64,000 nucleotides of DNA from Syntrophales bacterium (GTDB taxonomy: Bacteria; Desulfobacterota; Syntrophia; Syntrophales; UBA2210), in contig CAXXKT010000001.1 in assembly GCA_963662405.2 (NCBI GenBank), positions 2,592,001 to 2,656,000 of the forward strand. The letters are read 5' to 3'. A model generated the notes under the pieces. It ran no database searches and was not told the DNA's origin. It saw only the letters and a list, made by a program, of their open reading frames with translations. Below, piece by piece: positions 34,343 to 57,630 of this stretch (within the stretch, counting starts at the first letter, position 1; each line of letters begins with the position of its first letter). Both the position numbers and the translations under genes were made by a program.

Positions 34343-34419
<77 letters not shown>

Positions 34420-34430
34420 TATAGATACGT

Positions 34431-34508
34431 GGTGGGTGTAGCTCAGTTGGTTAGAGTGCCTGGTTGTGGCCCAGGAGGTCGAGGGTTCAAATCCCTTCAC
34501 TCACCCCA
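34431..34508 (+). tRNA. tRNA-His (anticodon GTG)
   Basis: G-1, anticodon arm CCTGG-TTGTGGC-CCAGG, GGTTCAAATCC, C discriminator plus CCA. Confidence 0.97.
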
Positions 34509-38494: not shown

Positions 38495-38510
38495 TGAAAG
38501 AAGCGTGCCA
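38495..38510 (-). promoter_or_regulatory. Possible sigma54 promoter
   Basis: TGGCAC-N5-TTTCA on the minus strand (one mismatch at -12) ~55 nt upstream of the 38439 start. Confidence 0.35.
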
Positions 38511-38713
38511 TTTCGCTGACTGGCGGTCAGAATATTTGTAACATATTGAATATGAGAAGGTTGTTGAGGAGAGCGGACTGGCGGAGGGGCACACAACCAT
38601 GCCCGAACAGCGTGCCTGATTAAATGAAACATCAAACCGGGTTGAATGAAATGTTAGAAAAAGAGGGGAATAATAATATCACCGTTTGGACATGAGCCGG
38701 CCGAGGAAACCAT

Positions 38714-38804
38714 ACCGAACCAAGCGCTTCCCGGGACGCTAAATATGTCGGCGGCCTGACTGGCATGTTGCCTGATAGCGGCGCAAATAATCGTATCGTT
38801 AAGT
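38714..38804 (+). other. Degenerate integron attC site
   Basis: ACCGAAC-CAAGC-GCTTCCCGGGACGC...imperfect hairpin...GTTAAGT. Confidence 0.45.
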
Positions 38805-39140
38805 ATTACTGAAAGCAATCTCATAATATTGCTTCAATCGTAATTCTATCAATTACAGGAAGAATGGCGCAGCAAAACATCTGTGCCGCCCCTCTTGCAG
38901 TACAAGTCTCACCTTTTACCAATCCTTAAGGCAGTCTCAGGGGAAAATAACCAATTACCATTTGAAAGTCTCGACGAAAAACTTCTTGACATGACACTGC
39001 CATAGAGTTACGTGGTACAACATGTTTCATTGAAATACCTGTATTATATCTGTTTGTGAATGGCTATAACCAGGAGATGAATATGGTCTGATTATCAAAG
39101 CCCTGTGTCTAATATACAAGAGATGGGGCTTTTGTTTTTT
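38798..39140 (+). repeat. Dispersed non-coding module, copy 1 (promoter + minigene + terminator)
   Basis: TTGACA 38986, TA after 17 nt, GGAG..ATGGTCTGA 39083-39091, hairpin plus T-tract 39097-39140; homologous to copies near 42.1-43.8, 50.4 and 52.2 kb. Confidence 0.8.
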
Positions 39141-39241
39141 CCCGCGCGTTTTAATTAATGACACGATTATCAAATCGAAAGCCAATTTTATAATTTATAC
39201 TTCAATCTTTTGGTATTTATTAAAACCATAACAATACCGCG

Positions 39242-39970
39242 ATGTGTGCTGATAAACCCCAAAAACCAATTGCTAAATATGGCAACCATATTACAATTGT
39301 GACTAACAAAAATGGAACATCGTACATTGCCAATATTGAGGCAGAGTATAGGTCCGCACACCAATTAATAAACGCAGCCCGAGTCATGGTTAACTCAGCA
39401 AATGCAATAGATGATGACACTCAGAGCCACTACCAACTGATGGCATACATATACGGGGCAATTATTTTGTCCTATACATCACTCGAAGCCACCCTAAATG
39501 AAATCCTTCACTTGGAGGCACTAAAACCAAACAGCCCGCTTAGTGAAGCAGAAAGAAAAGTATTCTACACCATTGTGAATGAGGGACTGGAAGCTCGTGG
39601 CAGAACCAATACATTGGAGCGATATAATTTGTTGCTGCGCATAATGAACAAGCAGGAAATGGAGGAAGACAGTGCTCCCTATCAGGCAGCAAATCTCGTT
39701 CGCCTTTTACGAAATAAGCTGATTCATCCAATACCCGGGAGAGTGGTAACATTAAGTGAAACAAATGACTTCGATTACTCGACACAGCAAGATATAGTCA
39801 AAAAACTAAGAAGCCATCTCAAGCTTGGCGAAGAGGCTACGTTCCCCTCTGACGTGCTCACAAGGGTTTGTGCCTCATGGGCCGTTAATTCTTGCGAAGC
39901 TTTTCTGCATAAGTTTGTTGTTTCATCAGGGATAAATCCGGGGTTCCACACAGGGCCGAAACGAAAATGA
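39242..39970 (+). CDS. HEPN-like domain protein
   Basis: Helical protein with LEATLNE and RNKLIH (Rx4H) motifs. Confidence 0.55.
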   Translation: MCADKPQKPIAKYGNHITIVTNKNGTSYIANIEAEYRSAHQLINAARVMVNSANAIDDDTQSHYQLMAYIYGAIILSYTSLEATLNEILHLEALKPNSPLSEAERKVFYTIVNEGLEARGRTNTLERYNLLLRIMNKQEMEEDSAPYQAANLVRLLRNKLIHPIPGRVVTLSETNDFDYSTQQDIVKKLRSHLKLGEEATFPSDVLTRVCASWAVNSCEAFLHKFVVSSGINPGFHTGPKRK

Positions 39971-40040
39971 AAAACTACATAAAGTACCACTCTACCCGAT
40001 TGTTATAAGGCCTTGTCGTTTTGCATTATTGAGGAAGTTT

Positions 40041-40742
40041 ATGTCGTTAATAGTAGCTATGCACCTAGGTAATTTTGCTGTAATCGCCGCAGACAGACGC
40101 GTGGTGTCTCAATACGGCAATTCACTGGTGGTAGATCATGACAATGCCGAAAAGATAGTCTATGCGGGTATGGGATTTGTTAGTGGAAGCGGGATAATTG
40201 AGTTGCTTGATTCCGTAATAGAAGCTTTTCTGAATACCAAAATCACCCATACCGACCAAATACTCCAGATCATCACCGAAGAGAGGAAAAAATTCCTATC
40301 CAGACACTTTGCTAACCAAGAATGGGCAAAGCAACAAATACAAAAAACCGGATGGATGTTTACGTACCCAACCGTAATCGATGATCATGCCACTGTCCGC
40401 ATTGCGATGCTCCACGGGTCGTGGGATAGTGACGATCTTGGGTTGCTGTGCAAAGGAATGGCCAAAGTGTTCGCACCAGTTGACGGAACTGGCGAAGAGG
40501 CCCAACGGCTTTCAGACATACTTACTAAGCATCTGAAGACCACAGATGAACTTCCTGACCTTTCTGAAAGTATTTCTTACCATATCCCGTTTCTTCAAAC
40601 ACTGTTCAATCTTGCGTCGGAGAGTTACGACAGTGTGTCCAAGAGTTTCCATATAGCTGTTCATACAAACGATGGACGAATGCTTATTTCTAGTAAGATT
40701 TCTACCAGCTCGGGTAACGTAACATTTGAAGCCAAACCATAG
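40041..40742 (+). CDS. Ntn-hydrolase / proteasome-beta-like protein
   Basis: N-terminus M-SLIVA...IAADRR...EKI...GFVSG follows the HslV/proteasome beta pattern; RBS GAGGA. Confidence 0.5.
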   Translation: MSLIVAMHLGNFAVIAADRRVVSQYGNSLVVDHDNAEKIVYAGMGFVSGSGIIELLDSVIEAFLNTKITHTDQILQIITEERKKFLSRHFANQEWAKQQIQKTGWMFTYPTVIDDHATVRIAMLHGSWDSDDLGLLCKGMAKVFAPVDGTGEEAQRLSDILTKHLKTTDELPDLSESISYHIPFLQTLFNLASESYDSVSKSFHIAVHTNDGRMLISSKISTSSGNVTFEAKP

Positions 40743-40826
40743 CACATAAGAGTGAATCGTCCCTAAAAAGTCGGTAGAATAGGATCCCAGGGCTTTAGAA
40801 AGAGTTGCACTAGTACCATGTAACGT

Positions 40827-41447
40827 TTATAGCTTCGGATAAAGGCGCTTCAACTTAATGCGAGCATCAGGAGTAGTAAATTGCCATACAATGTTTTTCG
40901 CGCTGTTGTTTCGATCTTTTTCCCATGCGGCCACTTCGGTTCGCATGGTCGTTATGTCGGGAATCCGGCGATTAAGGCATTGTCCTTTCAGGGCGCTGAG
41001 CTCGATCTCTGCCATATTCAGCCAGCTTCCGTGTTTAGGCGTATAATGGATATCGAGTCGTTCCGCTAAACGCCTGGCTTCCCCGGGTTTGAATGTTTCG
41101 TAGAGTGAGGCGATTGTATGGGTGTTCAGGTTGTCCATGACCAGACGAACCTTGAGGGCGCTGGGATAGCGTTCATCAAGCATCTGCCTGGTCTGCATCG
41201 CCCAATCCTTTCTTGTTCGATGTTCCGTGATCGCCACATGTCTTCTGCCAGCAAGGGGCTCAACTTCCATAAATATTTCCACTACCCCGTTTCTGACATA
41301 CTCGTCGTCTGTTCGCATCGGCCTTCCCGGTGCGCATGGCATCGGCTCTCGAACTTCACCTATCAGTTGCTTGCAGGATTCATCCATGCAGACAACCGGA
41401 TAGTCGGGATCATAGGGCAGATGATATATCTCCAAAACATCTTCCAT
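40827..41447 (-). CDS. IS630 transposase DDE part (reached by frameshift)
   Basis: CMDE, VMDNLNTH, TPKHGSWLNMAE. Confidence 0.92.
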   Translation of the reverse strand: MEDVLEIYHLPYDPDYPVVCMDESCKQLIGEVREPMPCAPGRPMRTDDEYVRNGVVEIFMEVEPLAGRRHVAITEHRTRKDWAMQTRQMLDERYPSALKVRLVMDNLNTHTIASLYETFKPGEARRLAERLDIHYTPKHGSWLNMAEIELSALKGQCLNRRIPDITTMRTEVAAWEKDRNNSAKNIVWQFTTPDARIKLKRLYPKL

Positions 41448-41452
41448 GCATG

Positions 41453-41959
41453 CTACAAAGGCCGCGCTCCCTTCGGGAGGGATTTTCCAGTATTTGCTGA
41501 TGTGAGGCTTAAGTTCGTTTTTTTTAAAATCCGCTGTACGGTCATGTGTGATACGGAATCGGCAATGCCAAGCTCGACAGCTTTGTCGGCAAGCAATCTG
41601 ACCGTCCAGCGACGATGTCCTTCGGGAGTGTCTGAACAGGCCAATGCGACTAATCGTGCCTCAAATGCACCGTCAAAAATGATGTCTCTCGGAGGCTTTT
41701 CCCGTGCCTTGCGTTCGAGAGCTGCTTCAAGCCCCTCTTCAACAAAGCGCTTTTTGAGATGTTCGATCGAACGGCTCGACACCCCAAGCGCCTCTGCAAC
41801 ATCGGACACGTTCCATGCCGGACCGTCAGAGCCGGCATCGCACAAAAGTAATGCGCGGGCATGGATGAATTTTCGGGCATGGGTCTTTCCTCTATGGGTC
41901 ATTGCCTCAAGCTCTTTGCGTTCTTCTTTGGTAAGGGTTACTCGATATCTTGGCGACAT
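41453..41959 (-). CDS. IS630 transposase HTH part
   Basis: RARALL-like motif, RWTVRLLA, ends near ILKK at the slippery site. Confidence 0.9.
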   Translation of the reverse strand: MSPRYRVTLTKEERKELEAMTHRGKTHARKFIHARALLLCDAGSDGPAWNVSDVAEALGVSSRSIEHLKKRFVEEGLEAALERKAREKPPRDIIFDGAFEARLVALACSDTPEGHRRWTVRLLADKAVELGIADSVSHMTVQRILKKTNLSLTSANTGKSLPKGARPL

Positions 41960-42257
41960 GGCAACCTCCTCTGTTGGTTTGCCGCCAGTCTATCATACCT
42001 TTTATAAATACGAAACATATTATGTTACATGGTACTAGATCACACATACGAAAATAGGATCAAGTATACAAGTTTACTTTGTTCTGATTACCAAAAAAAC
42101 GAACAATAAATCAACTTTAACTGACTCCCTCGATTACAGGAGAATCCCGTGAGAAAAACTATACCGGATATAGCCTTGCCTAGAGCTGGTCGGGCAAATT
42201 TGGACAGGTGCATAAGTGGGAAAGTTGCTCTATAGTGGACGTAAGGAGGAAAGAGAT

Positions 42258-42560
42258 ATGAGCAAGAGACCGCGGAGGAACCATGCACCGTCCTTCAAGG
42301 CGAAGGTGGCATTGGAGGCACTGAAAGGGGACCAGACGATCGTTGAGCTTGCCGAGCGGTATCAGGTACACCCGAACCAGATCACCACATGGAAGAAGCA
42401 GTTGATGGATCACGCATCGGACGTATTTGGCAAGGGTCATAAGGACAACCAGGGTCCGGATGTAAAAGAACTTCACGCCAAGATCGGACAGTTATCGATG
42501 GAGAATGATTTTTTATCACATGCGCTCGGTCGCATCAACGGAACGAGCGCAAAGCGATGA
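42258..42560 (+). CDS. IS3 transposase OrfA
   Basis: FKAKVALEA, VHPNQI..WKKQL, ENDFL. Confidence 0.92.
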   Translation: MSKRPRRNHAPSFKAKVALEALKGDQTIVELAERYQVHPNQITTWKKQLMDHASDVFGKGHKDNQGPDVKELHAKIGQLSMENDFLSHALGRINGTSAKR

Positions 42561-43387
42561 TCAAGAGAGAAAAGAGTGTGCCCATAACCCGTCAATGCGA
42601 ACTCTTGGAGCTGTCCCGATCGAGTGTTTATTACTCTCCGGTTCCGGTCAGCGCGAAGGATCTGGAGCTGATGCGTCAGATTGATGAGATTCATCTTCAG
42701 TATCCCTTCTATGGGAGTCGGAAGATTCGCAATGAGCTGTGGCAGAGAGGGTATGATATCGGACGTGATAAGGTACGTCGGTTGATGCGTCGCATGGGGA
42801 TCGAGGCGTTGTACATCAAGCCGAGATTATCGATAAAGCATCCCCAGCACCCGATATATCCGTATCTGTTACGGGGACTTGATATCATCCGTCCCAACCA
42901 CGTATGGTCTGCCGATATCACGTATATTCCCATGGAACGAGGGTTCTGTTATCTGGTAGCCGTTATGGACTGGGCGAGTCGGATGGTCCTCTCCTGGCGG
43001 TTGTCGAATACGTTGGACAGTGCGTTTTGTGTGGATGCGCTTGAAGAAGCACTCACCACGTATGGGCGCCCGGCTATCTTCAATACCGATCAGGGCAGTC
43101 AGTTTACCTCACAGGCATTCATCGATGTCCTTCGCTCTCATGATATCTCTATCAGCATGGACGGTCAGGGGCGATGGATGGACAATGTCTTCATCGAACG
43201 GCTCTGGAAGAGCGTCAAGTACGAAGATATCTATCTGAAGGCATACGGTTCAATGAAAGAGTTGAAGAAGGGGCTTACCGACTATTTTCAGTTCTACAAC
43301 GAGAAACGGTGGCACAATACTTTTGACAGAAAGACACCGGCTATGGTTTATTTTGAATCACTACCACAGGGACAGGCTGCGGCATGA
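42557..43387 (+). CDS. IS3 transposase OrfB (rve DDE)
   Basis: YGSR, WSADITY, NTDQGSQF, DNVFIERLW. Confidence 0.94.
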   Translation: MIKREKSVPITRQCELLELSRSSVYYSPVPVSAKDLELMRQIDEIHLQYPFYGSRKIRNELWQRGYDIGRDKVRRLMRRMGIEALYIKPRLSIKHPQHPIYPYLLRGLDIIRPNHVWSADITYIPMERGFCYLVAVMDWASRMVLSWRLSNTLDSAFCVDALEEALTTYGRPAIFNTDQGSQFTSQAFIDVLRSHDISISMDGQGRWMDNVFIERLWKSVKYEDIYLKAYGSMKELKKGLTDYFQFYNEKRWHNTFDRKTPAMVYFESLPQGQAAA

Positions 43388-43790
43388 ACACAAACCCAGG
43401 GCAACTTCCCACTTATAAATCCCTGTTACCTGTCCAAAGAAACCGGACCACCTCTCCTGTCCTGTAACAAATCTTGCACCATTCACCTAATCTTTAGGAA
43501 CATTGCTTAAGAGATTCACCAATTACCCATTGAACATCTCATGGCAATTTCTCGTGCCAAAACATACCGGGATGGAGTTGATGATTAATAAACGTTTAAC
43601 ATGTCATATGTGTTTTTAATTACATGCAATGTTCTGTCGAGGGCATGATCATGATACTGATCATTATGACAAAGATGAGGAGAATAATGATGAGAAGGAT
43701 GAAAAAAATAAAAAGATCACCATGCAGTCCTGTCTCTCAGACTAAAAGATGGGGATTTTGTTTTTGTAAACAATTCCAAGAATAGTCTCT

Positions 43791-44684
43791 TTAACTGTTT
43801 CTCTCGTGTTCGGGGTCTGATAAATCACCGGCCAAAGCCTCAACAAATCCTTGTTTTAATTTCTCGAGCTGAATATTTATTGTATCGAAATTACTGTTAA
43901 ATTCCAGCTTCTCTCGGATCATGCTGATAATTAAGTTATTAGGGGGGCGTGTTTCAGCATCTAAGATAGACCGTACAGTCTTTGCCGTTTTTTTATTAAC
44001 AATCGTGGCCATATCTCTGCCGAGTAATCTTATGCTTGCGAGCCGAGTGTCAAAACCTTCTTCTTCCAACAAGTGCAATTCGTTATTGTAAAGCCTGTCA
44101 AAATTTCCTGCTTGTTCGTATTCGTGCATTATAAACAACAAATCATCAGCATCTTTTGCGCGTTCGGGATATTTTTCCTTCCACGAAATAAGTTTCATGA
44201 CTGCTAGACCCGGCAAGGTAGGAACTTTGACATCGAGCTCGGGATCAGAATTTAGCCTGACTATAATTGAATTTTCAAAAGCCTCTTTAAAGCCCATTAT
44301 ACTCATAAATATTTTACGTTCCGGTGGCCAACCAATTCTTTCTTGATCATCGGCAATTGCACCAAATGGAACTATGTCGATAGGAGTACAATCGAAGAGG
44401 TATCTTTGAGGTTCTTTTGTGCGAGAAAACTTACCCGTTGAGATTAACGAGTCAGTCAACTTGTAAAATTGTTCCCAATCAGCAACGTTAATGCCCAAGT
44501 CGATATCTCCCGTCCTTCTGTGGGCACTTATCCCATAACAATGTTTCAATACAATGTCTCTCGCAAATGCGCCGACCACAAAAAAGACAATATTCAAGCT
44601 GTCGGCTTCTGTTTGAATGGCTAGAAGAGCCTCTACCTTTTGCTGATCAATCTTCCCGGATAAATTGAACAATATATTTTTCAT
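43791..44684 (-). CDS. Nucleotidyltransferase toxin, AbiEii-like (type IV TA)
   Basis: VVGAFARD, TGDID, IDIVPFG, KLISW, KDADD. Confidence 0.8.
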   Translation of the reverse strand: MKNILFNLSGKIDQQKVEALLAIQTEADSLNIVFFVVGAFARDIVLKHCYGISAHRRTGDIDLGINVADWEQFYKLTDSLISTGKFSRTKEPQRYLFDCTPIDIVPFGAIADDQERIGWPPERKIFMSIMGFKEAFENSIIVRLNSDPELDVKVPTLPGLAVMKLISWKEKYPERAKDADDLLFIMHEYEQAGNFDRLYNNELHLLEEEGFDTRLASIRLLGRDMATIVNKKTAKTVRSILDAETRPPNNLIISMIREKLEFNSNFDTINIQLEKLKQGFVEALAGDLSDPEHERNS

Positions 44685-45699
44685 AGATCATTTTCGCAGT
44701 GTCAATGTTCCGTTGGTTACCTGTTGCGATAAGATCTGCATAGATAAGCATTGGGTGTACGAGATCTTTGTATTCGATGTTTTCATTATAGTCCCAAAAC
44801 CGGTTGAGAATTTGAACTTTACCAGTCGGATCCTTTTTAAGCTTACATTCAAATAATAGATGGTTGAGATATTGAGTATTTGTATAGATCGTAATTATTT
44901 CAGGATGGAGATACTGTGTCAACTTCGCTGCGGCGACCTCTCCACCCCATTGAACCTTCAAATAATCCAATTTTCTTTGTTGCCACCAATTGTCGCCCTC
45001 ACCCCTGTAACATCCCAGAATCTGTTTGGGCTTTAATTGTTCTGGGTATGCCGTGACCCACCGTTGAAATAAAATATTTTTCTGAATAAGTTTGTAACCT
45101 TTTTTCCCCATACCTATTAGAAAACCTAGGTTCCTTAGATCCCTCATAAACCAACCAACTGTTCCAAGGGCCACTTTTGCTCTCGCAGCAATTTCTCGAA
45201 ATGGTCTATTCTCTAGTCCGGGGTTACACAGCAAAGCATAAATTATTTTAAGGCCTGTGGGTTTGAAAGCCCTATTGGTTGGCGCCTCTCCCGGAATCTC
45301 CGGAGGCTTGTTACCTTTTACAAAAATATATATTGGTGGTTGGTTTATGAATGCATTGCCAGCCGTATCGATGAATTCTATATCAGCTTTCAATAGCTCT
45401 TGTGCCGCAAAGGGATTTATATGCTTTGCTACTAATAAAAGTGGATGGGGTAATTCTTGTTTGTACATGAGCAATAATAGGATATTTGCCTTTGTGAAGG
45501 CATTTTTAATCTCAGCACAATATCTGAACTTTTTCCCATTTATTTGAACATCTAGCTCCATGTCCGGTTGAAAATCGACGTTGTAATGGGGGTGTTCAGT
45601 CAAAAAATTGACTTTTAACTGCACGAGGGTATTCTTCCTAAATGCTTCGGCGGCAAGTTCAAGGAGCTCTTTCTGTCTATTAATATTTATATCAGGCAT
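44647..45699 (-). CDS. AbiEi-like antitoxin / transcriptional regulator
   Basis: FIDTAGNA, wHTH REIAARAKVALGTV, WGGEVAA, LIYADL; overlaps the toxin gene. Confidence 0.8.
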   Translation of the reverse strand: MPDININRQKELLELAAEAFRKNTLVQLKVNFLTEHPHYNVDFQPDMELDVQINGKKFRYCAEIKNAFTKANILLLLMYKQELPHPLLLVAKHINPFAAQELLKADIEFIDTAGNAFINQPPIYIFVKGNKPPEIPGEAPTNRAFKPTGLKIIYALLCNPGLENRPFREIAARAKVALGTVGWFMRDLRNLGFLIGMGKKGYKLIQKNILFQRWVTAYPEQLKPKQILGCYRGEGDNWWQQRKLDYLKVQWGGEVAAAKLTQYLHPEIITIYTNTQYLNHLLFECKLKKDPTGKVQILNRFWDYNENIEYKDLVHPMLIYADLIATGNQRNIDTAKMIYEKYIVQFIRED

Positions 45700-45720
45700 G
45701 GGATGTTCACGCTTTTTATT

Positions 45721-45817
45721 TGTTCATAAAATGTGAACATAAGAAATATTTGAACAAATGTCAATATGTTTATTTTTGAATTGTGCATCTTTTTGTTACG
45801 TTCATATAAAGTGAACA
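45721..45817 (-). promoter_or_regulatory. AbiE operon promoter with two palindromic operators
   Basis: TTGACA-N17-TATGTT (45764 to 45736); GTTCA-N7-TGAAC at 45722-45738 and 45800-45816. Confidence 0.65.
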
Positions 45818-45880
45818 TACTTGAAAATTGAACACCAATGAGATGTTCGCATCTAAAGCAATGGGACCAAACTTTATTTT

Positions 45881-46096
45881 TTATATTTCATTCTGTCCTA
45901 GAAGCTGCGCCAAAGATAACCCGAAGCAATTTGAGATAAACACCATTCTTTTTTTTGCCTTGTCCAATTCTTCCCTATTCTCAACCCAGTTTACCAGCTC
46001 ATTCCAGGCTTCAGCACTTTTCTGCAAAGAATAAAGCTGAATATTTTGATCACTAACCGCAACTGACGGAGATCCAAATTTGCAATAATGAACCAT
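45881..46096 (-). pseudogene. Short, probably truncated hypothetical gene
   Basis: Good RBS GGAGG; 71 aa ending abruptly in AT-rich DNA. Confidence 0.35.
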
Positions 46097-46142
46097 TTAT
46101 TCCTATGCCTCCGTTAATCGATCCTTCGGCTGGTCACAACGC

Positions 46143-49100
46143 TCAGCCCCGATAAAGCACTCCGATAATAGCTCGCGCGCTTGTTACGCTTTGGAACCCT
46201 TTGTGCGGCTTGCCGACAGATAGAATTTGCGAGGACCCGAGACCGCCGATGCTCTCGAATTGCATCAAGTCAGCAAGTTCCCCGGAAAGTACGGCACCCA
46301 CACGCTTGAATATGCCTGACCCGTCATCAAGATTCAGTGCGACAAGTGCATCTTTACGCCGGCATAGGTCGCTAAGCTCGATGGGACTGCCGCCGAGCAC
46401 AACCTGCTTTGCAAGCGCGAGGGGAACCGCGCTGTCGTCGCGCACGCGGAAGGCAACCTCGACGCGCCTCAAGACATTGTCCACATCAACCCGCACCGCC
46501 TCATCCTGTCCCGGTGGGACCAAAAGGGAGTGGTCGAAAATGATTCCAACGACTTGGTGGATGGCAACGTCGTTCTCGGGGAAAAAGATCGACTTTGGGG
46601 TTCTCGTGCGGGGATCGGGGACTTCCGCCGTGAGGCCAATGATACTGGCGTTCACATCACGCACCAAGCGGCGCGCGTACACGGTGCTGCCATGCCGGGC
46701 GATGACGAGTGCCCGATCAGTTACGGGTCCAGGTAGGGATTCGACTATTGCAAGTGCACCGCCAGGTGCGGCAAATCCAAAATTGGGTCGGCGGAGATAA
46801 TAGACGACGGTGTTCTCGAGAAGGTGAGGATCAAGGCGTTCCAGAGGTTCTTGTGATTCATCCGAAGGCGCGCGCTGCGTAAACGCGGCAAGATCTGGAC
46901 AGATCACGACGTCCAGCGCGGGATGGGGCATAGGTGTAAGTGCGGGCGGTGCATCGGTCGCAGACTGATCCTTGGGTGTGTCCCTTCGTCGCCAGCGATA
47001 GCATTCCATGTACATTTTTTCGACGAGTTTGAGGAGTTCTTCCAATTCGTTGGCGCACAGCGCCACCTCGGCGGCCCTGATCTCTTGACGCCGACCATGA
47101 TGCGCCTTGTTCATGAGTGCGAGCACCGGCGATCGGTCGGCGAGCGCTGGATGCTCGACGAAGTCGCTGAATACATGCGCACTAAACATTCCCCGCGGAC
47201 CAGCCGTTGCTTCCTGTCGAAGGCGCTGCAAAAAATCCGAAAGTGTCGGATTCGGATGAGCGATCGCCCACGCTGCATGAGCCGGATCATCAAACATGTC
47301 TCCGAGCTTGTCCTCAAAGAAGACCCGACAGCCGTCGGCGAAGTCGCGTGCAGGCTCCTCCGCATTTCGGTCCACGTCGAATCGAGCCTTTCGCCGTTCG
47401 ATGACCGGGAACGGTGGCGAGGTTCGGACTGCAGGCTGCTGGCGCGTCGCCGGATGTACTTCTAAGTGTTCTGGTCCATTGGGGACCTGAAGGCGGGAGA
47501 CGTACCCACAAAATCTTGGATCATATGAGGTAACGATCAATTGGGCGTTGGCGGCTACCAGTGCGGTAAATGAGGCCGCGAGGCGTTCACGGTTTTCGTC
47601 GTCGAGCAGTTCCTGAGGGTCGTCTAAGACCAAGGTCGTCAAGCCACCACGTTCTCTCAACACGTACACCCAGAATGCGAGAAAGAACGCGACCAGGCTA
47701 GCGCGAAGAGCTGAAGCGTTGACGACATGTTGAGCAGGCGCCGAGATGCCACCCGCCTGTACGACAAGGTCTAACTCGCCCTTGCGGCCCAGCGCGGTGT
47801 CGACCAACTCGTGTGCGGTGTCAGGAAACGCGCCGAGATAAATCCTGGTACGCCAGTCAGCTGCATCCTCGCGCAGGGTTTTGCGAAGCTGATCAACCTG
47901 ATCGTCGGCAAATTGTCCCAAACTGGCGAGATTCGTGAGCGCCGCGCTCGCGATAGTGTATTCGCTTAGGCGCTGTTCAGTGGTCCGGCGTGCCTTCAGA
48001 TGATCCTTGAGCCGGCCACACTGGATAAGCGCGTCGGAGATGGGCTGTGCGCCTTTTACCGTTGCTTCAAGGTCAAGCAACTTTCCGGTGAGCGTGATCT
48101 TTTCGTTCGGCTCATCCTTCTTCGGCCTACTCCCAAGCACGCAGGCAATGATGTTATGTACGAGGGTGTCATTGGCCTGGCGCCATCGTGCAAACCGGAT
48201 TGCGCAGTCGAGGCGTTTCAGAGTCTCGCCAAGCGCATCGCCTCCTTTTGGAAGCACAATGTCGGTTGGCTCGATCAGCGCCGAGCGCTCTTTGACGACA
48301 TCATCAAAGGCGGACGCAGTTTGCATCTTCAGATCACCCAACACTCCCCGAAACGGATCGAAGGCAAAGAGCTCATCCACGATCGCCGCGCGAAGCAAGT
48401 CGCACGGGTGGGCCGGCAGGTCGGTGGCGGCCTCTGTGAGAAGCGGTTCCGGTAGACTTCGCATGAGGTCACCCTGCGCATTATTGGCCCATTGGCTAAG
48501 CGTTTGTGACAGCAACGCCGCGTTCGAAGCCGCCTCGTGCATGTGTGTTTTTACCGGCTTACCGGTCACGGGATCGATCGCGTGTTCGAGACTGCCGCCG
48601 CAGACGAGGCATATATTCTCCTTGCGTTGTGGGTCGGGATGATCCGTGATCCATGCAACGATACGCGCATAGAGACGGGTTCTCGCGGCCGTTGACGGAT
48701 CCTTCGACAAAGCATCAAGGGTTTTTGCTTCCGCGAGAATAGCCTGAATCTTGGTTTCTGACGCATTGAGTTGCTCGTGCTTGAGCTTGCGCAGAGCATT
48801 AATTCTGGCGGCTGAGATGAGAACCTGTGGTTGGCTTACGCGTTCAAGTGCCCCGCCAATATTCTTCTCCAGATCGGAAAGGAGGGCGGGATTGACGGGG
48901 TCGAATCGTTCACCCAGAATGTCGCGTGCGGATTTAAATGCATTGGCCTTCGCGGCATCGAAGTGTTTGGTGATCGCATCGAGGGTTTTTTCGATCTCCT
49001 TATCATTGGACGGTTGGGGCACAGCTTGCCCCGGTTTCAGGCTTGGATGCGCCAACAAAATCTTTTCGAGGTCACTCTTTGAGGTAGTATAGTCGCGGTC

Positions 49101-50054
49101 CGCTCGCGCGCATTCGACCGTTTTGGCCTTTATGAACTCTTTGTCGATCTTGGTCTTTGCCCGCCGCGCGTGCGCGGCGAGATCGACGAGGGCGGAAAGG
49201 CCCGTGAGCTGCGAAACGGCACGACCCAATTCAGATTCCGATCCGACTTTGATTAGTGGAAGAAGCCCCGGCATAACGGTTCCGATGCGCAGTGCGATCG
49301 GATCAACACCGAGGGCCGACAGGTCAGGCTGCGTTTCCTTCAGCTTCCCCTGCGACGACCGGCTCAGGCTGCGGCGGATAATTGGGAGTTCTGTTCCAGT
49401 CTCATCAGTGAACGTCAGTTCCACCCATGTGTCGGCAAGGACACATGCCTGATCGGGGCGATACTCCTCCAGATTCGGCAGCGGCGTGAGCGGCGATAGT
49501 TTATGCACCGTGCGTTCATCACCCCCGTCTGCTGCGGTAACCCAGCACTCGAAGTCTTCTGCAGCCTCGGGTTCACGTTGCGGACGCAGCATTTCCCCTG
49601 TCAGGGTCCAAATGATCGCGTTCAGCAGAGATGTCTTCCCCGAGCCGTTCCTGCCTTCGAAGAGCGTAAGCGGCGAAGTGAATTCGTGGACATAGTTTGG
49701 AGGCGGGGCGGCAGGCGTCCCGAATTTATGAAGGCCAGCGAACCTGTATGCCTCCAGCTTCTTCAGCTTCAAGTGCCTCCACTTGGCGTTTGCCGGTCGT
49801 GCGGTCAATGCTGATAATGCGGGCGGTGCCAGAAGAATGGCATTGACCATGTCTTCGCCGATCGCCGCACTGACGTTGGCAGTCCACACACCAGCGCCTT
49901 TCTTGCGGTACCATTCGAGTGCACTGCGCGTCCGTTCGTCCGGTAAAACAAAAAGCTCCCCTGTAGCCGTCTCAACCGATCTGCCACTAACAAGGTCGGC
50001 GATTAGCGAATCAAGTGTATGTAAATGCAAGGATCGTGATTCAGATTCGGGCAC
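46143..50054 (-). CDS. Rad50/RloC-like ABC ATPase with HEPN-like and tandem S24-like C-terminal domains
   Basis: GRNGSGKTS, coiled coil with central CLVC, LVLDDP, CRVFFE...MNKAHH, FRVRDDS...IFKRV; GTG start with GGAGG RBS. Confidence 0.75.
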   Translation of the reverse strand: MPESESRSLHLHTLDSLIADLVSGRSVETATGELFVLPDERTRSALEWYRKKGAGVWTANVSAAIGEDMVNAILLAPPALSALTARPANAKWRHLKLKKLEAYRFAGLHKFGTPAAPPPNYVHEFTSPLTLFEGRNGSGKTSLLNAIIWTLTGEMLRPQREPEAAEDFECWVTAADGGDERTVHKLSPLTPLPNLEEYRPDQACVLADTWVELTFTDETGTELPIIRRSLSRSSQGKLKETQPDLSALGVDPIALRIGTVMPGLLPLIKVGSESELGRAVSQLTGLSALVDLAAHARRAKTKIDKEFIKAKTVECARADRDYTTSKSDLEKILLAHPSLKPGQAVPQPSNDKEIEKTLDAITKHFDAAKANAFKSARDILGERFDPVNPALLSDLEKNIGGALERVSQPQVLISAARINALRKLKHEQLNASETKIQAILAEAKTLDALSKDPSTAARTRLYARIVAWITDHPDPQRKENICLVCGGSLEHAIDPVTGKPVKTHMHEAASNAALLSQTLSQWANNAQGDLMRSLPEPLLTEAATDLPAHPCDLLRAAIVDELFAFDPFRGVLGDLKMQTASAFDDVVKERSALIEPTDIVLPKGGDALGETLKRLDCAIRFARWRQANDTLVHNIIACVLGSRPKKDEPNEKITLTGKLLDLEATVKGAQPISDALIQCGRLKDHLKARRTTEQRLSEYTIASAALTNLASLGQFADDQVDQLRKTLREDAADWRTRIYLGAFPDTAHELVDTALGRKGELDLVVQAGGISAPAQHVVNASALRASLVAFFLAFWVYVLRERGGLTTLVLDDPQELLDDENRERLAASFTALVAANAQLIVTSYDPRFCGYVSRLQVPNGPEHLEVHPATRQQPAVRTSPPFPVIERRKARFDVDRNAEEPARDFADGCRVFFEDKLGDMFDDPAHAAWAIAHPNPTLSDFLQRLRQEATAGPRGMFSAHVFSDFVEHPALADRSPVLALMNKAHHGRRQEIRAAEVALCANELEELLKLVEKMYMECYRWRRRDTPKDQSATDAPPALTPMPHPALDVVICPDLAAFTQRAPSDESQEPLERLDPHLLENTVVYYLRRPNFGFAAPGGALAIVESLPGPVTDRALVIARHGSTVYARRLVRDVNASIIGLTAEVPDPRTRTPKSIFFPENDVAIHQVVGIIFDHSLLVPPGQDEAVRVDVDNVLRRVEVAFRVRDDSAVPLALAKQVVLGGSPIELSDLCRRKDALVALNLDDGSGIFKRVGAVLSGELADLMQFESIGGLGSSQILSVGKPHKGFQSVTSARAIIGVLYRG

Positions 50055-50369
50055 GCAGCCTCCTTCAAGGTGGAAAAATGCGGGACCAGAACGGAGAACA
50101 AACGAAACTTTCGACAGCTACGGCTTGGAAGCTACCTCTCTTTTTGAAGCCTGTCAATCATTTAGTACAGGGAGAAGGGCGCAGCGAAACACGAGCTCTG
50201 CCCCTGCTGCACCAAATCTCACGCGTTGCACCTTGTCATCACCATCGAGTGCGCCGAGAGCTCACCGATTGTTTATTCGAAGTCTATAAGAAGGATGGAT
50301 GCGAATAAATAGTATCTTTCAAACCATACTCATCAGCCATGATTAATTGAATGGTAATGTTACCGATTG

Positions 50370-50600
50370 TTGACTTCACCTACCTGCTCAGAACAATCCC
50401 AAAAGAAAATCGATTATTACCATTCGAAAGTCTCGACGGAAAAGTTCTTGACACGACAGCATTATGGAGCTAGTGGTTTATATGGTTTATCGGTCTTGAC
50501 TGCTTTGTATATTTTTGTGAGCAGCTATAACCTGGAGGGGATTATGGCCTGATCATCAAAGCCCTGTTTCTCAAAAAGAGATGGGGCTTTTGTTTTTTGT
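50370..50600 (+). repeat. Dispersed non-coding module, copy 2 (5'-truncated)
   Basis: TTGACA 50448, TAGTGG 50471, GGAGGGG..ATGGCCTGA 50544-50552, terminator to ~50598. Confidence 0.8.
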
Positions 50601-50750
50601 GAGCAGCCCGGGAGAATATTGCAGTCACCAAGACAAAAAAGGGTATTATACAATTTCTGTATAATACCCCCTCATAAATTGAAGTGCTCTTTTTATATGT
50701 ACGTATGACAATGGCTTGCGATTGCACCCTTAATATGTTTTCGAGGGATC

Positions 50751-50812
50751 TTATACAGATCTACTAGCTGTGTTTCGTTTTTATACAGAAAACTGTCTAT
50801 TTAATGTTAGCC
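50751..50812 (+). other. attI-like cassette insertion site
   Basis: GTTAGCC at 50806 is complementary to GGCTAAC of the next attC; TTATACAGA direct repeats at 50751 and 50781. Confidence 0.45.
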
Positions 50813-50827
50813 AGCAGAGGATAGTTC

Positions 50828-51496
50828 GTGGAAGACATACTCAGCGATCAAGCACTGAAAACAATCCGTGATCGGTACTACGCCGGAGTCACCGCCGCTG
50901 AACTTGGCTTTGACTTCAGCAAAGGTGACGAAGATTCGCTCACTGGTGCGCTAGGACAAGCGCTTCTCACGCCATCCACATTGGTTACGACTAACGCCGA
51001 TACGCAATTTCGATACGCCATTTATCACTACAAGTTGCGCGGACGTGGTCCGAACGCTCCAGAAGCGGAATTAGGGGCAGACGGTATATTCCAGATTGAA
51101 GTCACTGATCGTGATGGAAAGCTGCTCCGCCGAAAAGGGCTTCTATTTCAATCAAAGAAAGAATGGACTGGAAAGGACTCTCTCTTAGGCAAGCAAGCGA
51201 AAAAGATGGCTAAAAAACCAGGGGCAGGTATCGTGATCGATTTTGGCCCGCAAGGCTACAATACATGTCCAGCAAAACTTGCAGCCCACGCAGAGGGTCA
51301 AAGGCATGATATCGATAAAAGGGAGTTTACGAGGCTGGCAAAGACTCTAGGTGACGAATTCGTTCGGTGTCGTGTTGGAGTCGAAGGGCTTTGGTACGAT
51401 CCCGACAGGGAACTTCTTATTGCTCCAGACTCTGATGAACCCGGCATGCACGTCATCGACGCTCGAGTTCAACGCCTAAGCGACCGAATTGGCTAA
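50828..51496 (+). CDS. Cassette gene, putative PD-(D/E)XK-fold nuclease
   Basis: DEDSLT...E..LGAD...KGLLFQSKK motif order; stop lies inside attC R''. Confidence 0.55.
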   Translation: MEDILSDQALKTIRDRYYAGVTAAELGFDFSKGDEDSLTGALGQALLTPSTLVTTNADTQFRYAIYHYKLRGRGPNAPEAELGADGIFQIEVTDRDGKLLRRKGLLFQSKKEWTGKDSLLGKQAKKMAKKPGAGIVIDFGPQGYNTCPAKLAAHAEGQRHDIDKREFTRLAKTLGDEFVRCRVGVEGLWYDPDRELLIAPDSDEPGMHVIDARVQRLSDRIG

Positions 51497-51547
51497 CAAG
51501 CAAATCCAGCGGACGGCTTTCAGCCGGCACTGATCCGTACGTTATGT
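51491..51547 (+). other. Integron attC site
   Basis: GGCTAAC-AAGCA-AATCCAGCGGACGGC-TTTCA-GCCG..CTGATC-CGTAC-GTTATGT. Confidence 0.8.
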
Positions 51548-51557
51548 GGGAGAACCA

Positions 51558-52097
51558 ATGAAGACGAGATTGCTTTCTTTTATTAATAAACCTTGGTGGA
51601 GTTTTGTCGGATGTGCTTTGGCAATCTTTGCCTTCTTTGGGATTAATAGCGGCAATTTATCTGAAACATTCGGAAAATATGAATGGATGATAAGTGCCTC
51701 TAAAGGGTCACTAATTATTGGAGCCTTTCTATTTTCGATTCATGCTTATATTAGGGCAGAGAAAAATAGAAAAAACTTAATCCAAATCAAATCATCGACT
51801 TACGATGAAGTTTATAAAAAGTTCTCAGACACAATAAATTATGCAGTTGGAAGATACAAGGGGTATAAAGACAAGTTGGATCCTGACAATAGAAAGTATA
51901 CCACTGTTGGTGTCCATGAAATGATAAATGAAGTTAAAAGTGCTAGATTACAGCTTCTCTCAATTTGCGGTGATAATTTGAGATCTATATTATTGAATGA
52001 AGGAACAGACTGGCTAGATGATATAGATAAATTTGGGAGTGTCGCTCCTAACATTATTGAAAAGCTAGCTAAAAATGCATACAAAGATAGAGAATAA
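51558..52097 (+). CDS. Cassette gene, hypothetical 2-TM membrane protein
   Basis: Two N-terminal hydrophobic helices and a soluble helical tail; AT-rich; fills the space between two attC sites. Confidence 0.7.
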   Translation: MKTRLLSFINKPWWSFVGCALAIFAFFGINSGNLSETFGKYEWMISASKGSLIIGAFLFSIHAYIRAEKNRKNLIQIKSSTYDEVYKKFSDTINYAVGRYKGYKDKLDPDNRKYTTVGVHEMINEVKSARLQLLSICGDNLRSILLNEGTDWLDDIDKFGSVAPNIIEKLAKNAYKDRE

Positions 52098-52105
52098 TAA
52101 TCATG

Positions 52106-52165
52106 TTATAACAAATCTCTCTAAGAGAACGGCCTGAACGGCCGCCCTTCAGCTTCTCGTTAATG
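52106..52165 (+). other. Integron attC site
   Basis: TTATAAC-AAATC-TCTCTAAGAGAACGGCC-TGAAC-GGCCGCCCTTCAGCT-TCTC-GTTAATG. Confidence 0.72.
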
Positions 52166-52800
52166 ATTCCAGAATGATCTTTGCAATTGCTTCAATATTA
52201 ACACTCTTTGCAGAATACCCCGCGGCTTGCCGAGGGGATGAATGCATGCCTTGCCCAGGGGGTTATAAGGGGGAGCGGAGCGTCCCCCTTATCCACAGAG
52301 GCCCTTGTGTGACAACATGATATAAGACTGTCATGACGATTCAGCGAACGAGTCATGCGGTCTACGACACGAGTTACCATCTGGTATGGTGTCCGAAGTA
52401 CCGTAAGAAGGTTTTTGAGCGAGCGGATCTTCGGGAACGAGCGGGACAGCTCATTCGAGAGATCAGCGAGGATTATGGATTTGACGTGATCGAGATGGAA
52501 ATATTTATTTTATCTGTTTCAGGAAGAATCGCGCAGCAAAAGTATTTCTTGGACACTCCTGCGGCGATCCACCCACTCTTCACCTACGAGTGCTCATAAT
52601 AATCCCAGGAGAAAATCGATTATTACTGATTGGAAGTCTCACGGTAAAATCTCTTGACAATACATCATCATAGCGTTAGCTAAGTAGCTGATTTGATCTT
52701 TACGTTTTTTCTGCCTGTGAACAGCTATAACCGGAGGGGATTATGGTCTGATCATCAAAGCCCTGTTTCTTATCAAACGAGAGATAGGGCTTTTGTTTTG
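52159..52800 (+). repeat. Dispersed non-coding module, copy 3 (contains IS200 fragment)
   Basis: Starts at attC GTT; CAGGAAGAAT.GCGCAGCAAAA 52520, TTGACA 52654, ATGGTCTGA 52743-52751, terminator to 52800. Confidence 0.8.
52200..52500 (+). pseudogene. tnpA: IS200/IS605 left end plus truncated Y1 transposase
   Basis: End hairpin CCCCGCGGCTTGCCGAGGGG; ORF from 52333 with HAVYD..YHLVWCPKYRK breaks off before the HUH motif. Confidence 0.85.
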
Positions 52801-52906
52801 TTGGCGGGAAGGGATGTGAAAAAGAATAGCAAAAGAAATTAAATTGGGAAGTGTTTCTAGTTTTTATGATGGGGTGGGTGTCATTCTAGATATTTAAGGA
52901 AAAATA

Positions 52907-54727
52907 ATGAAAATTCGTCGTCTCAGAATGAAGAACTTTCGGAGTGTTGCGAACGGAGAAATTCTCTTTCCAGGTCATACCGCGGTAATCGGTGGAAATA
53001 GCGTCGGAAAATCGACGATGTGTGAAGCATTGGATTTGTGTCTTGGTCCAGATCGCTTATCCCGTTCCAATCCTATTAACGAACACGATTTTTATCAACG
53101 GCGATACATCAGTGCTGATAGTACGCCAATCCCAATTGAGCTAGAAGTGGTTCTGACAGACTTAACGTCTGATCTTGAAACAAGATTCAGAGCGCACCGT
53201 GAGTATTGGAACACTGAAACCAATTCCTTGCTTGATGAGAATGCAGAGCCTGAGGATACGGAACTTGATAACGTTATTCCTGCCATTAGAATAAAGTTTG
53301 AGGGTCTTTACGACACAGAGGAGGATGAGTTTACAGCGGAAACATTTTTTGCAAGTCCGCCTCCTGAAGATGATGTAAGCCGAGCGAGAGTAAGTCGTTC
53401 TGCAAAACGCCGTTTCGGTTTCATCTATCTGCGTGCTCTGCGCACTGGATCACGTGCGCTCAGTCTCGAACGTGGCTCACTACTCGATATAATTCTCCGT
53501 CTCAAAGATGATGATCGCTCCGCTATGTGGGAACAGACCTTAAATGCTCTTGAAGGTCTTAATCCACCAATCGACAGTATTCCGCAGCTCCGAGACGTGC
53601 TTGATGAGATTGATGGTCGGGTTCGCCGATTTGTTAATATGTCAGAGAATGATCGCGCATTTCAGCTATACCCATCATCTTTGACCCGTGATGATTTGCG
53701 TAAATCCATTACTCTATTCGGGGCGTCCGCCCGATCAAACGCACATGTTCCATACTGGCGTTTAGGGTCAGGTGTGATTAATGCGCTCGTTTTCTCATTG
53801 CTCACATTTATCGCTGAACTAAAAGTAAATGTGATTTTCGCTATGGAAGAACCAGAAATAGCAATACCACCGCATACACAAAGGCGAATTGTCCAATTCC
53901 TGCAAAAAAATATGGATCAATCAATTCTCACGACACATTCGCCCTTTGTTCTCGAACAGTTTAATCCTGAGAACGTTGTATTGCTGGAACGTGATACCAA
54001 CGGTTCACTTGGAGGCCGCCAGATTGAAGTTAGCGGCATCAAGGGTAAAACCTATCGAGGTAATCTACGGCGTATTCTTGCGGAATCAATGCTCGGTAAC
54101 GGTGTCATTTGTGTTGAGGGAGTGTCTGATGCAGAAGTGTTGTATGCGGCTTCAAATGTATTGGAAAGTTACCGTGATGAATTATCGTACACGCCTTTGG
54201 ATTTGTCGGGTGTGACTGTAGTTCAGTGTGAAGGAGATGGAGGTATCCTCCGTTATGGGCAATTTTTCAAAGGCCTCGGGGTGAAAACTTATGCTTTCTA
54301 CGATCTTCAAAAAAATGTAGCAATCAAAAATGATATTGAAGATCTTTTTGATGGTGTATGGGAGCTTGAGCATACTGGCATAGAGTACCTCTTGGCCGAA
54401 GAAACAAATATTGATGCTGTTCGCGCTTTCTTAGAGGACGCTAGTACTTGGGATGATTACCCATCCAACAGAGAAAGACCAGAACTCTACGAGTACGATG
54501 AAGATCTCGATAATGATGATACTCGAGCCATTACCAAACGGGTTCTAAAGCGGAGAAAAGGATCTGGATACGCCGAAAAATTGGTGGAGATGTGTAGCGC
54601 CGAAAATTTGCCGGAGATTATCAGCACCGCACTTAATGCCATTAGCGAAGACCTACCAAATGCCATGGTCAGAGACGATACGGATGGCGGCGACGAAGCC
54701 ACCGAAGACTTGGATACTGATGCATGA
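52907..54727 (+). CDS. gajA: OLD-family ATPase-TOPRIM nuclease, Gabija GajA-like
   Basis: GGNSVGKST, LGSG, MEEPE, TTHSP, CVEGVSD; overlaps the UvrD gene. Confidence 0.78.
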   Translation: MKIRRLRMKNFRSVANGEILFPGHTAVIGGNSVGKSTMCEALDLCLGPDRLSRSNPINEHDFYQRRYISADSTPIPIELEVVLTDLTSDLETRFRAHREYWNTETNSLLDENAEPEDTELDNVIPAIRIKFEGLYDTEEDEFTAETFFASPPPEDDVSRARVSRSAKRRFGFIYLRALRTGSRALSLERGSLLDIILRLKDDDRSAMWEQTLNALEGLNPPIDSIPQLRDVLDEIDGRVRRFVNMSENDRAFQLYPSSLTRDDLRKSITLFGASARSNAHVPYWRLGSGVINALVFSLLTFIAELKVNVIFAMEEPEIAIPPHTQRRIVQFLQKNMDQSILTTHSPFVLEQFNPENVVLLERDTNGSLGGRQIEVSGIKGKTYRGNLRRILAESMLGNGVICVEGVSDAEVLYAASNVLESYRDELSYTPLDLSGVTVVQCEGDGGILRYGQFFKGLGVKTYAFYDLQKNVAIKNDIEDLFDGVWELEHTGIEYLLAEETNIDAVRAFLEDASTWDDYPSNRERPELYEYDEDLDNDDTRAITKRVLKRRKGSGYAEKLVEMCSAENLPEIISTALNAISEDLPNAMVRDDTDGGDEATEDLDTDA

Positions 54728-56470: not shown

Positions 56471-56561
56471 GTATAACGTCCAAGGTCACTTGCGCCGCCT
56501 AAGACCCTTCCGCGTCAGCGCCGCAGATGTTAACGGCGTCAAGTGAACCGTCTGGTTCGGC
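56471..56561 (-). other. Integron attC site (minus strand)
   Basis: Minus strand reads GCCGAAC-CAGAC-GGTTCACTTGACGCC...GGCGCAAGTGACCT-TGGAC-GTTATAC, with two unpaired bases in the left arm. Confidence 0.8.
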
Positions 56562-56566
56562 AATTC

Positions 56567-57010
56567 CTATAAATGCTTTATTTCAATGGCACCAAATTGA
56601 TCTTTTAAATATTCACTTACCAAACGACGATGGCATTTTTCAGGAGTAGGTTCACTACACAAAAAACAAGCATTATTAAGTTCTTCAAGAGATATTTTTT
56701 TCTCGATTTTGCGTTCTTTAATCAGTTTGCTAAAACGCTGTACATACTCATCCCAATCAATTTGCTTTTTCTTGTATGCATCAAGAATTTCCTTTGTTGG
56801 TGCAAAATCGGGCATGTGTTTATAGTCACAGTCGCAAAGCTCTCTTAAAAAGAAGATGAGGTCATCTCGTTTTGCAAAACCAGCAAGTTGAGAAACATTG
56901 TTCAACCGAATATCGATGAGTTTAGTAACGCCGGCGTTACGTATTTTGGAGAAGAATGTTTTCGCGCTTTTTTTTGTGAATCCAATAGTATACAGGTTTG
57001 TTTTTGACAT
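56567..57010 (-). CDS. DUF488-family protein
   Basis: YTIGF, IDIR, SQLAGFAK, LCSE..PEKCHR. Confidence 0.85.
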   Translation of the reverse strand: MSKTNLYTIGFTKKSAKTFFSKIRNAGVTKLIDIRLNNVSQLAGFAKRDDLIFFLRELCDCDYKHMPDFAPTKEILDAYKKKQIDWDEYVQRFSKLIKERKIEKKISLEELNNACFLCSEPTPEKCHRRLVSEYLKDQFGAIEIKHL

Positions 57011-57618: not shown

Positions 57619-57630
57619 AATTTACCACTA

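Follow-up and report, generated by a model that had tools for sequence, protein, structure and literature searches.

In the trpL, hisL and pyrBI (pyrL) leaders, a promoter is followed by a translated leader, a terminator and the gene, and the position of the ribosome decides on termination. The attenuator of Escherichia coli ampC, reportedly described by Jaurin et al. in 1981 as a ribosome mechanism with growth-rate-dependent control, is built around a start-stop mini open reading frame (mini-ORF; ATG TAA) immediately before an intrinsic terminator in the leader. For the upstream ORF, uORF(MIN), of the Bacillus subtilis vmlR leader, the Shine-Dalgarno (SD) sequence and the start codon are reported to be essential and the codons largely exchangeable (PMC9226507). 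Here, we analysed a 64,000-nt stretch (in the following, the window) of the genome of a Syntrophales bacterium (GenBank assembly GCA_963662405.2, contig CAXXKT010000001.1, positions 2,592,001 to 2,656,000 of the forward strand), in which a sequence-only reading had noticed four copies of a promoter-minigene-terminator module. These modules belong to a large family of leaders, each with a mini-ORF next to a terminator, which we consider probable ribosome-controlled attenuators.

The leader family and its proposed function

The core of the element consists of a promoter-like TTGACA-17-TA, a leader of ~115 nt and a terminator; a 5′ extension of ~150 nt is a separate upstream part. An iterated profile found 54 copies at E ≤ 1e-8 on all three contigs of the genome and no match on the reversed genome. 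The four homologous modules first described are real, three with intact cores and the fourth decayed, but their number is not that of the family. TTGAC-17-TA is present in 45 of the 54 copies. With a median pairwise identity of 54% (maximum 87%), the copies are old; the comparison with ends of insertion sequences (IS) and miniature inverted-repeat transposable elements relied on these identities and on the variable 5′ boundary.

BLAST detected the element in 15 of 30 relatives, among them 14 of 18 within the family, and an exact pattern matched 28 stretches in GTDB genomes, 22 of them titled Syntrophales or Syntrophaceae. Within the order (Syntrophales), a covariance model matched 57 of 141 genomes; in a phylum sample it matched 11 of 151, 9 of which lie outside the order. 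The pattern scan of a part of a metagenome collection yielded 123 stretches and IMG/VR two, and the plasmid and phage collections gave no match to the element. In Rfam 15, the best match was NsiR1, located on the terminator, with 28.2 bits vs a cut-off of 39; no family reached its gathering score, in line with the sequence-only reading, which had recognised no riboswitch or small RNA (sRNA) family in the core. Seven loci with divergent members had no Rfam match either. Searches of a limited literature library, which did not extend to the supplements where motif screens could list the element, showed no description of it. A genome-wide scan for unrelated SD-ATG-NNN-stop terminators returned only a handful outside the family.

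For the mini-ORF we compiled 128 homologs, namely the 54 copies of this genome, the leaders of its two intI genes and 72 model matches from other genomes (those with DNA retrieved, out of ~240 covariance-model matches in the order); 118 remained after dereplication. Of these, 110 have a start codon (ATG 103, GTG 4, TTG 3; other 8). Its second and third positions are 97% fixed, in contrast to the variable stretch that separates it from the SD. SD pairing has a median of −7.2 kcal/mol in the 110 homologs (92% below −4), as compared with −0.15 kcal/mol (4% below −4) at a control site 25 nt upstream. A stop stands at codon 3 in 70 of these 110. Among the 40 others, 20 have an in-frame stop at codons 4–6, vs 3 of the 70, and the other two frames of the same 40 homologs have one in only 3 and 5 cases, in counts to which kin contribute non-independently. 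Since relatives are not independent in such stop counts, a tree of 135 rows was made (the 118 plus 17 from the phylum search; its bootstrap had not settled). It contains a separate supported clade with four codons ending in TAA, TGA or TAG (15 rows) and another supported clade with three codons ending in TAA (9 rows), and the stop-less rows are scattered tips that form no supported clade of their own. The ORF comprises 2–5 codons, usually two; its length and the identity of its stop differ between lineages at constant start-to-stem spacing. In the two intI leaders, which read ATG AAC TAA and ATG ATC TGA, codon 2 and the stop both differ. DNA was at hand for 16 of the 19 matches outside the order, and all 16 have a 2–4-codon ORF with a stop, the starts being chosen by eye and including one ATA and one doubtful TTG. 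Codon 2 encodes Val, Ala, Asp, Gly, Glu, Ile, Asn and others, with no regulatory codon run for a downstream pathway, and the peptide itself appears unimportant. At the level of sequence conservation, the translation signals of the upstream ORF are kept.

The terminator shows covariation: in 6 of its 12 pairs both bases have changed, and none of 500 shuffles reached the score, for an alignment that was fitted to the model. RNAalifold predicted no conserved structure besides the terminator and no alternative antiterminator helix. The A of the start codon lies 17–20 nt from the stem base in 78 of the 87 homologs in which a stem was found, and the distance from stop to stem is at most 12 nt in all 72 homologs considered, a cut-off that is said to come from Johnson et al. 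in 2020. Ordinary terminators after long genes of this genome lie within 12 nt of the stop in only 2 of 49 cases (median 29 nt). According to a review, coupled ribosomes antiterminate intrinsic terminators, and a short stop-to-terminator distance is a proxy for uncoupled transcription in a species (PMC7858274). With its ordinary terminators distant from stops, the organism therefore looks coupled by that proxy. The terminator of the family sits in the zone shunned by other terminators, which is the strongest argument for occlusion by a ribosome.

The leaders are oriented towards genes. The next ORF within 400 nt lies on the same strand in 43 of the 54 copies, on the opposite strand in 9, and is missing in 2; for other terminators of the genome the ratio is 104 to 90 (P 1e-4 vs 43:9). 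The GC content of the downstream genes is 0.484 vs 0.547. The first genes encode a ThsB-like TIR protein, Mrr, HNH, PD-Lambda-5, a kinase and Gabija, as well as five GGDEF or HD_5 proteins, Lcl_C, beta-helix proteins, transporters, transposases and many proteins without match; for a 242-aa protein, the Atlas search gave only unnamed clusters. In the relatives, HsdM, Shedu and a reverse transcriptase follow, but also acyl-CoA dehydrogenases and parts of ABC transporters. The enrichment of defence neighbours that the sequence-only reading had expected was not significant: PADLOC hits fell on 11 of the 46 first genes and on 16 of 120 ORFs drawn at random (P 0.11), where both counts include generic matches (two HD domains among the first genes, ATPases among the random ORFs) and the random draw happened to contain the Gabija and DUF488 genes of the window. 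The trait common to the downstream genes is "accessory", not "defence". An element that organises an integrase-less defence island was therefore too narrow a description, given that the core occurs genome-wide, that an intact intI exists elsewhere in the genome and that the first genes are mixed.

Tandem rows of leader, gene, leader, gene occur as well, with four units at one locus (L017, G000:C1:433000-437500) and two each at L023 and L031; the genes in these rows are unrelated or paralogous. Four family copies come after tRNA genes, and at L126 the 3′ half of a leader directly follows a tRNA gene, without a promoter of its own.

We interpret the family, with reasonable though not high confidence, as a portable transcription attenuator controlled by the ribosome: a ribosome on the mini-ORF would block the terminator, so that the next gene is read. 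This builds on what is legible in the DNA, namely anatomy, conservation, spacing, orientation and the position of the leaders ahead of accessory genes with low GC, of attI-like sites and of the two intI genes. It also bears out the earlier suggestion of a reusable regulatory unit, for which the word "minigene" proved to be the key. Transcription would start ~55–70 nt before the ATG from a weak sigma70-type promoter. By default, a hairpin of ~15 pairs would form and an RNA of ~115 nt be released. If a timely ribosome bound at SD-AUG and still stood on the ORF or its stop when the polymerase reached the U tract, the hairpin could not close near the polymerase. Because it is the occupying ribosome that would block the hairpin, read-through should scale with the initiation rate and the dwell time at the stop. 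The input would most likely be a general signal, such as the supply of free ribosomes or the growth rate; a specific stress signal is possible.

Several observations weigh against this interpretation. Nine of 52 copies face a gene on the opposite strand, and 23 of the 135 homologs lack an early stop, some of them with promoter and terminator intact. Codon-3 variants in 111 close metagenome copies comprise TAA (3), CGA (3), TTA, TCA and TGG (1 each); with three synonymous stops vs six non-stops, close kin show no preference for a synonymous stop. Moreover, +4 G, +6 C, +8 G, +9 A and +10 T are 80–91% conserved even where they do not form a stop, a conservation near the ATG that a pure mini-ORF does not call for. 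The review also reports nearly 100% efficiency for terminators located within 100 nt of an ORF start, as ribosomes have not caught up (PMC7858274); read-through may therefore be rare without a pause, and the default state is probably off. Initiating 30S subunits give toeprints at +16 (PMC9226507). The stem base begins slightly farther on, at +18 to +21, and a ribosome would therefore abut rather than cover the stem. Blocking would then have to act through a steric effect on the polymerase. Finally, the last T of the −10 box is absent in 39 of 44 copies (present in 5 of 44 vs 98 of 254 other sites), and a standard promoter scan does not list the promoters of the family. A CarD/CdnL gene lies at 11807-12355 of the window; a role for it at the promoters of the family is a possible lead.

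Alternative explanations

The leader might be a cis-acting attenuator whose switch is a ligand, a NusG paralog or an RNA-binding protein; the bases that look like SD and AUG would then be an untranslated binding site or antiterminator strand. Such a role would account for the additional conserved bases around the ATG. The SD stretch is rich in G and similar to the 3′ arm of the terminator, so that it might pair with the 5′ arm, yet the predicted pairing between the two is only 0.16. Pairing of the SD with upstream bases amounts to 0.62 vs 0.58 in shuffled sequences (higher in 52 of 99), and there is no aptamer-like structure. A second NusG-family gene exists in the genome and five first genes encode GGDEF or HD_5 proteins, but the NusG paralog itself has no such leader, and the exchanges among ATG, GTG and TTG and among the stops would be left unexplained. 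Taken together, we regard this alternative as unlikely. Two related candidates were rejected. A hairpin hiding the SD was attractive in single folds and, by eye, in divergent members, but does not exceed shuffles and is absent from the RNAalifold prediction. A leader of the RfaH/LoaP type was dropped as well, as no family copy is present at the operon of the NusG paralog (C1:1449233).

Quite unlikely, too, is a multicopy family of trans-acting sRNAs of ~115 nt, each combining a 5′ seed that varies with a 3′ scaffold that does not, next to which the downstream genes would be passengers, a possibility already raised by the sequence-only reading. Every copy has its own promoter-like site and a strong terminator, the 5′ half is variable and the 3′ half conserved, and the copies facing an opposite-strand gene (9 of 52) would pose no problem. 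An sRNA fits worse than a cis-acting leader because of the orientation bias to the next gene (43:9 vs 104:90), because different orders retain the SD, the start codon and the early stop although the codons themselves differ, and because the terminator is the only conserved structure that RNAalifold gives; there is no Rfam match.

An unregulated damper, in which a weak promoter and a leaky terminator hold new, often toxic genes at a fixed low expression and the mini-ORF sets the leak but senses nothing, would suit downstream genes without common function, the lack of regulatory codons and the poor −10 boxes. A fixed leak, though, needs no conserved three-part geometry, and a weaker promoter alone would be enough; we consider the damper very unlikely.

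Copies in the window and the integron link

In the window, copies 1, 2 and 3 denote the modules at 38798, 50370 and 52159, to which the decayed copy at 42081 is added. Their intact cores (n = 3) span 38963-39138, 50426-50596 and 52632-52799 (E 1e-37 to 1e-45, profile search). Each carries TTGACA-17 nt-TA, a GGAG..ATG GTC/GCC TGA core and a hairpin with a T tract, as first described. The features of the region, all on the + strand, are as follows.

38716..38804, +: attC-like site (decayed), ending at GTT 38798, with AAC...GTT frame; 41 of 250 random sites fold equally or better
38798..38966, +: 5′ extension of copy 1, a separable, insertion-prone spacer (profile E 1e-17 and 3e-32)
38986..39014, +: promoter-like TTGACA-17-TACGTG of copy 1; final −10 position not T
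39073..39091, +: SD and two-codon ORF ATG GTC TGA of copy 1 (ATG at 39083)
39097..39140, +: predicted intrinsic terminator of copy 1; next gene 39242-39970, same strand
42081..42181, +: 5′ piece of the decayed copy, left of the IS3 element; alignment score matched by 3 of 2000 shuffles
42182..43455, +: IS3-family element inside the decayed copy (Pfam HTH_Tnp_1 and rve; 3-bp CCT duplication)
43456..43767, +: 3′ piece of the decayed copy (E 5e-6)
50158..50278, +: partial 5′ extension of copy 2 (E 4e-29)
50448..50476, +: promoter-like TTGACA-17-TAGTGG of copy 2
50534..50552, +: SD and ATG GCC TGA of copy 2 (ATG at 50544)
50558..50598, +: predicted intrinsic terminator of copy 2
50751..50810, +: attI-like site, crossover GTT at 50806, 155 nt past copy 2; one of 14 profile matches
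50828..51547, +: cassette 1, a 222-aa ORF without family match and an attC (51494-51547); 15 of 250 random sites fold equally or better
51546..52165, +: cassette 2, a 183-aa ORF and an attC-like site (52110-52165)
52159..52205, +: start of the 5′ extension of copy 3 (E 1e-9)
52205..52500, +: IS200/IS605 transposase fragment inside copy 3 (Y1_Tnp E 4e-12; 94–95% match elsewhere in the genome)
52500..52633, +: remainder of the 5′ extension of copy 3 (E 7e-32)
52654..52682, +: promoter-like TTGACA-17-TAGCTA of copy 3
52733..52751, +: SD and ATG GTC TGA of copy 3 (ATG at 52743)
52757..52799, +: predicted intrinsic terminator of copy 3, 15 pairs
52907..56469, +: Gabija gajA-gajB, predicted read-through target of copy 3 (PADLOC GajA E 1e-224, GajB E 4e-185)

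Copy 2 had been taken for 5′-truncated, which is not simply so, as its extension was matched upstream of the core. Likewise, core and extension of the 52159-52800 module are real, but it is not one piece, being split by the IS200 transposase fragment (~52205-52500). The decay of the 42081-43767 copy and its split by IS3 were confirmed: besides the match of its 3′ part, its 5′ piece aligns to the 5′ extension with a score of 131, vs 89.8 ± 9.5 for shuffles, and beats 1997 of 2000. This copy has lost its −35 box, carries an insertion ahead of the terminator and has no + strand gene downstream; it does not head a defence block, as had been proposed, since the next gene (AbiEii) is convergent and it thus heads nothing. 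PADLOC corroborated Gabija after copy 3. The "HEPN/Ntn pair" after copy 1 found no such backing: there is no Pfam or PADLOC match above cut-off, only an RxxxxH motif, as in a putative HEPN protein, and a weak match to MJ0548_N (E 0.011).

Copies 1 and 3 were thought to begin at the GTT of an attC. The sites before 38798 and 52159 do have the AAC...GTT frame and are plausible as decayed attC sites, but 41 and 55 of 250 random intergenic GTTR sites, respectively, fold as well or better; for the latter site, the position in the array is in its favour. Folding was used here instead of a box-pairing attC score, which was not discriminating (18% of random sites scored as high). The "begins at attC" claim, moreover, concerns the separable extension, which directly precedes only 6 of the 54 cores and is often interrupted by IS elements, and not the core. 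Its GTT start follows a well-folding attC (best 2%) at 3 of 8 sites tested, neither window site among them. We found no attC closing copy 1 or its two genes, and copy 2 is followed by the attI-like site, not by a closing attC. The 5′ extension (150 nt) is thus best seen as a neighbour in its own right that serves as an insertion site for cassettes and IS elements, and the interval from 50806 to 52159 reads best as two cassettes inserted between the attI-like site and the extension of copy 3.

The genome carries two intI genes, of which one is intact and the other broken. Each is preceded by a divergent leader and has an attI-like site on the 3′ side. Of the 14 profile matches to attI-like sites (none on the reversed genome; identity is based on position and the GTT end), two adjoin the 3′ ends of these intI genes, and at eight, including that of window copy 2, a core ends 13–155 nt upstream. 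At these eight sites, the leader stands in the position of the integron promoter Pc, facing the array, which applies to 8 of the 54 cores only. The core upstream of attI-like sites and of both intI genes is a stronger integron link than attC, and the attC and defence claims of the sequence-only reading became secondary or unsupported. A leader before intI is not a general feature, as it was absent at 29 other intI loci of the order in the upstream DNA read, some of it short. That the whole 340-bp element is a mobile unit bounded by attC sites, be it a landing pad of an integron, as first proposed, or a promoter cassette without a gene, and that it organises defence arrays of cassettes, is most improbable: although the extension begins with GTTAA, follows a well-folding attC at those three of eight sites, and has a precedent in the gene-less cassettes with promoters that are reported from Vibrio (10.1101/2023.11.21.568050), it directly precedes few cores, no attC closes copy 1 or its genes, the core is more often found upstream of attI-like sites (8 of 14), as a platform promoter would be, and the defence enrichment has a P of 0.11.

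Further observations concern the surroundings of the copies. Both intI genes (L074 and L076; G000:C1:2211990 and C1:30608-31553) are directed towards their 3′ attI-like site; for the intact intI, this attI-like region is interrupted by the IS3 element that also occurs in the window. At three cores (L011, L014, L022), the distance from the end of an upstream 322-aa IS110 transposase to the core is exactly 60 nt, which points to a target of defined sequence within the 5′ extension. A second copy of the 170 nt at 38501-38670 exists in the genome with 98% identity, and the attC-like site with the extension (window 38500-38980) is repeated, too, at G000:C1:232450-232925. The bases just past the terminator repeat the GTGAACAGC motif, otherwise located upstream of the SD, at L135, L136, L213 and window 50600. 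Repeated GTTCA...TGAAC inverted motifs lie upstream of the AbiEi gene (45700-45830), which we presume to be its operator. On the minus strand at 56475-58925, two attC sites that fold well flank a DuOB gene and two DUF488 genes (PADLOC PDC-M45B/C), which together make up a defence-like cassette of three genes within a second array. A repeat of tRNA-His and the 3′ end of tRNA-Arg (window 34343-34505) is present ~61 kb on (G000:C1:2687265-2687371), adjoining a tyrosine-integrase match at C1:2685897; the window from 34.5 kb onward, including a terminase gene (60010-61920), is probably one tRNA-His island or prophage.

Relation to known attenuators and integron promoters

Going further, the copies could form a protein-free, genome-wide translation-sensing regulon, in which one mini-ORF gate opens acquired genes, arrays and intI at the same time whenever ribosomes dwell on a start or stop codon, as might happen during a phage attack or translation stress; we put this forward as a doubtful but attractive extension. 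Integrons elsewhere are known to be under LexA/SOS control. Here, a ribosome switch would take its place, and cassette shuffling would be coupled to cassette expression. If the attenuator works as proposed, a slow-growing anaerobe could control foreign, possibly toxic genes at once without a dedicated repressor. The natural series of two, three and four codons with three stops at fixed spacing would, in addition, lend itself to testing at which distance a ribosome blocks an intrinsic terminator.

Among described systems, the family would work like the ampC attenuator, by analogy of layout, but is no homolog of it. In ampC, no sense codon follows the ATG, the stem base is 9 nt from the A and the stretch read has no clear SD; the family has 2–5 codons, a spacing of 17–20 nt and a strong SD. 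ampC is one gene, whereas ~54 copies of the family stand before unrelated genes, and there is no sequence likeness by eye. With vmlR, the family shares a very short uORF that has an SD of its own and precedes an intrinsic terminator; the vmlR leader differs in having anti-antiterminator and antiterminator helices over 219 nt and in serving one resistance gene (PMC9226507). In the family, the ORF lies directly next to the terminator, and the analysis gave no support for an alternative helix. Unlike trpL and hisL, the family has neither regulatory codon runs nor a biosynthetic operon, and its ORF is too short for an amino-acid stall. pyrL runs through its terminator, whereas most family ORFs stop ahead of theirs. 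Like the integron promoter Pc, the core would supply a promoter for arrays, 13–155 nt upstream of 8 of the 14 attI-like sites. Pc is not known to have a built-in attenuator; the core also differs from Pc and from promoter cassettes in that it has no closing attC, is mostly located away from arrays and also precedes intI itself.

The known mini-ORF attenuators serve one operon each, while here one design is present ~54 times in one genome and across Syntrophales, before acquired genes, attI-like sites and intI.

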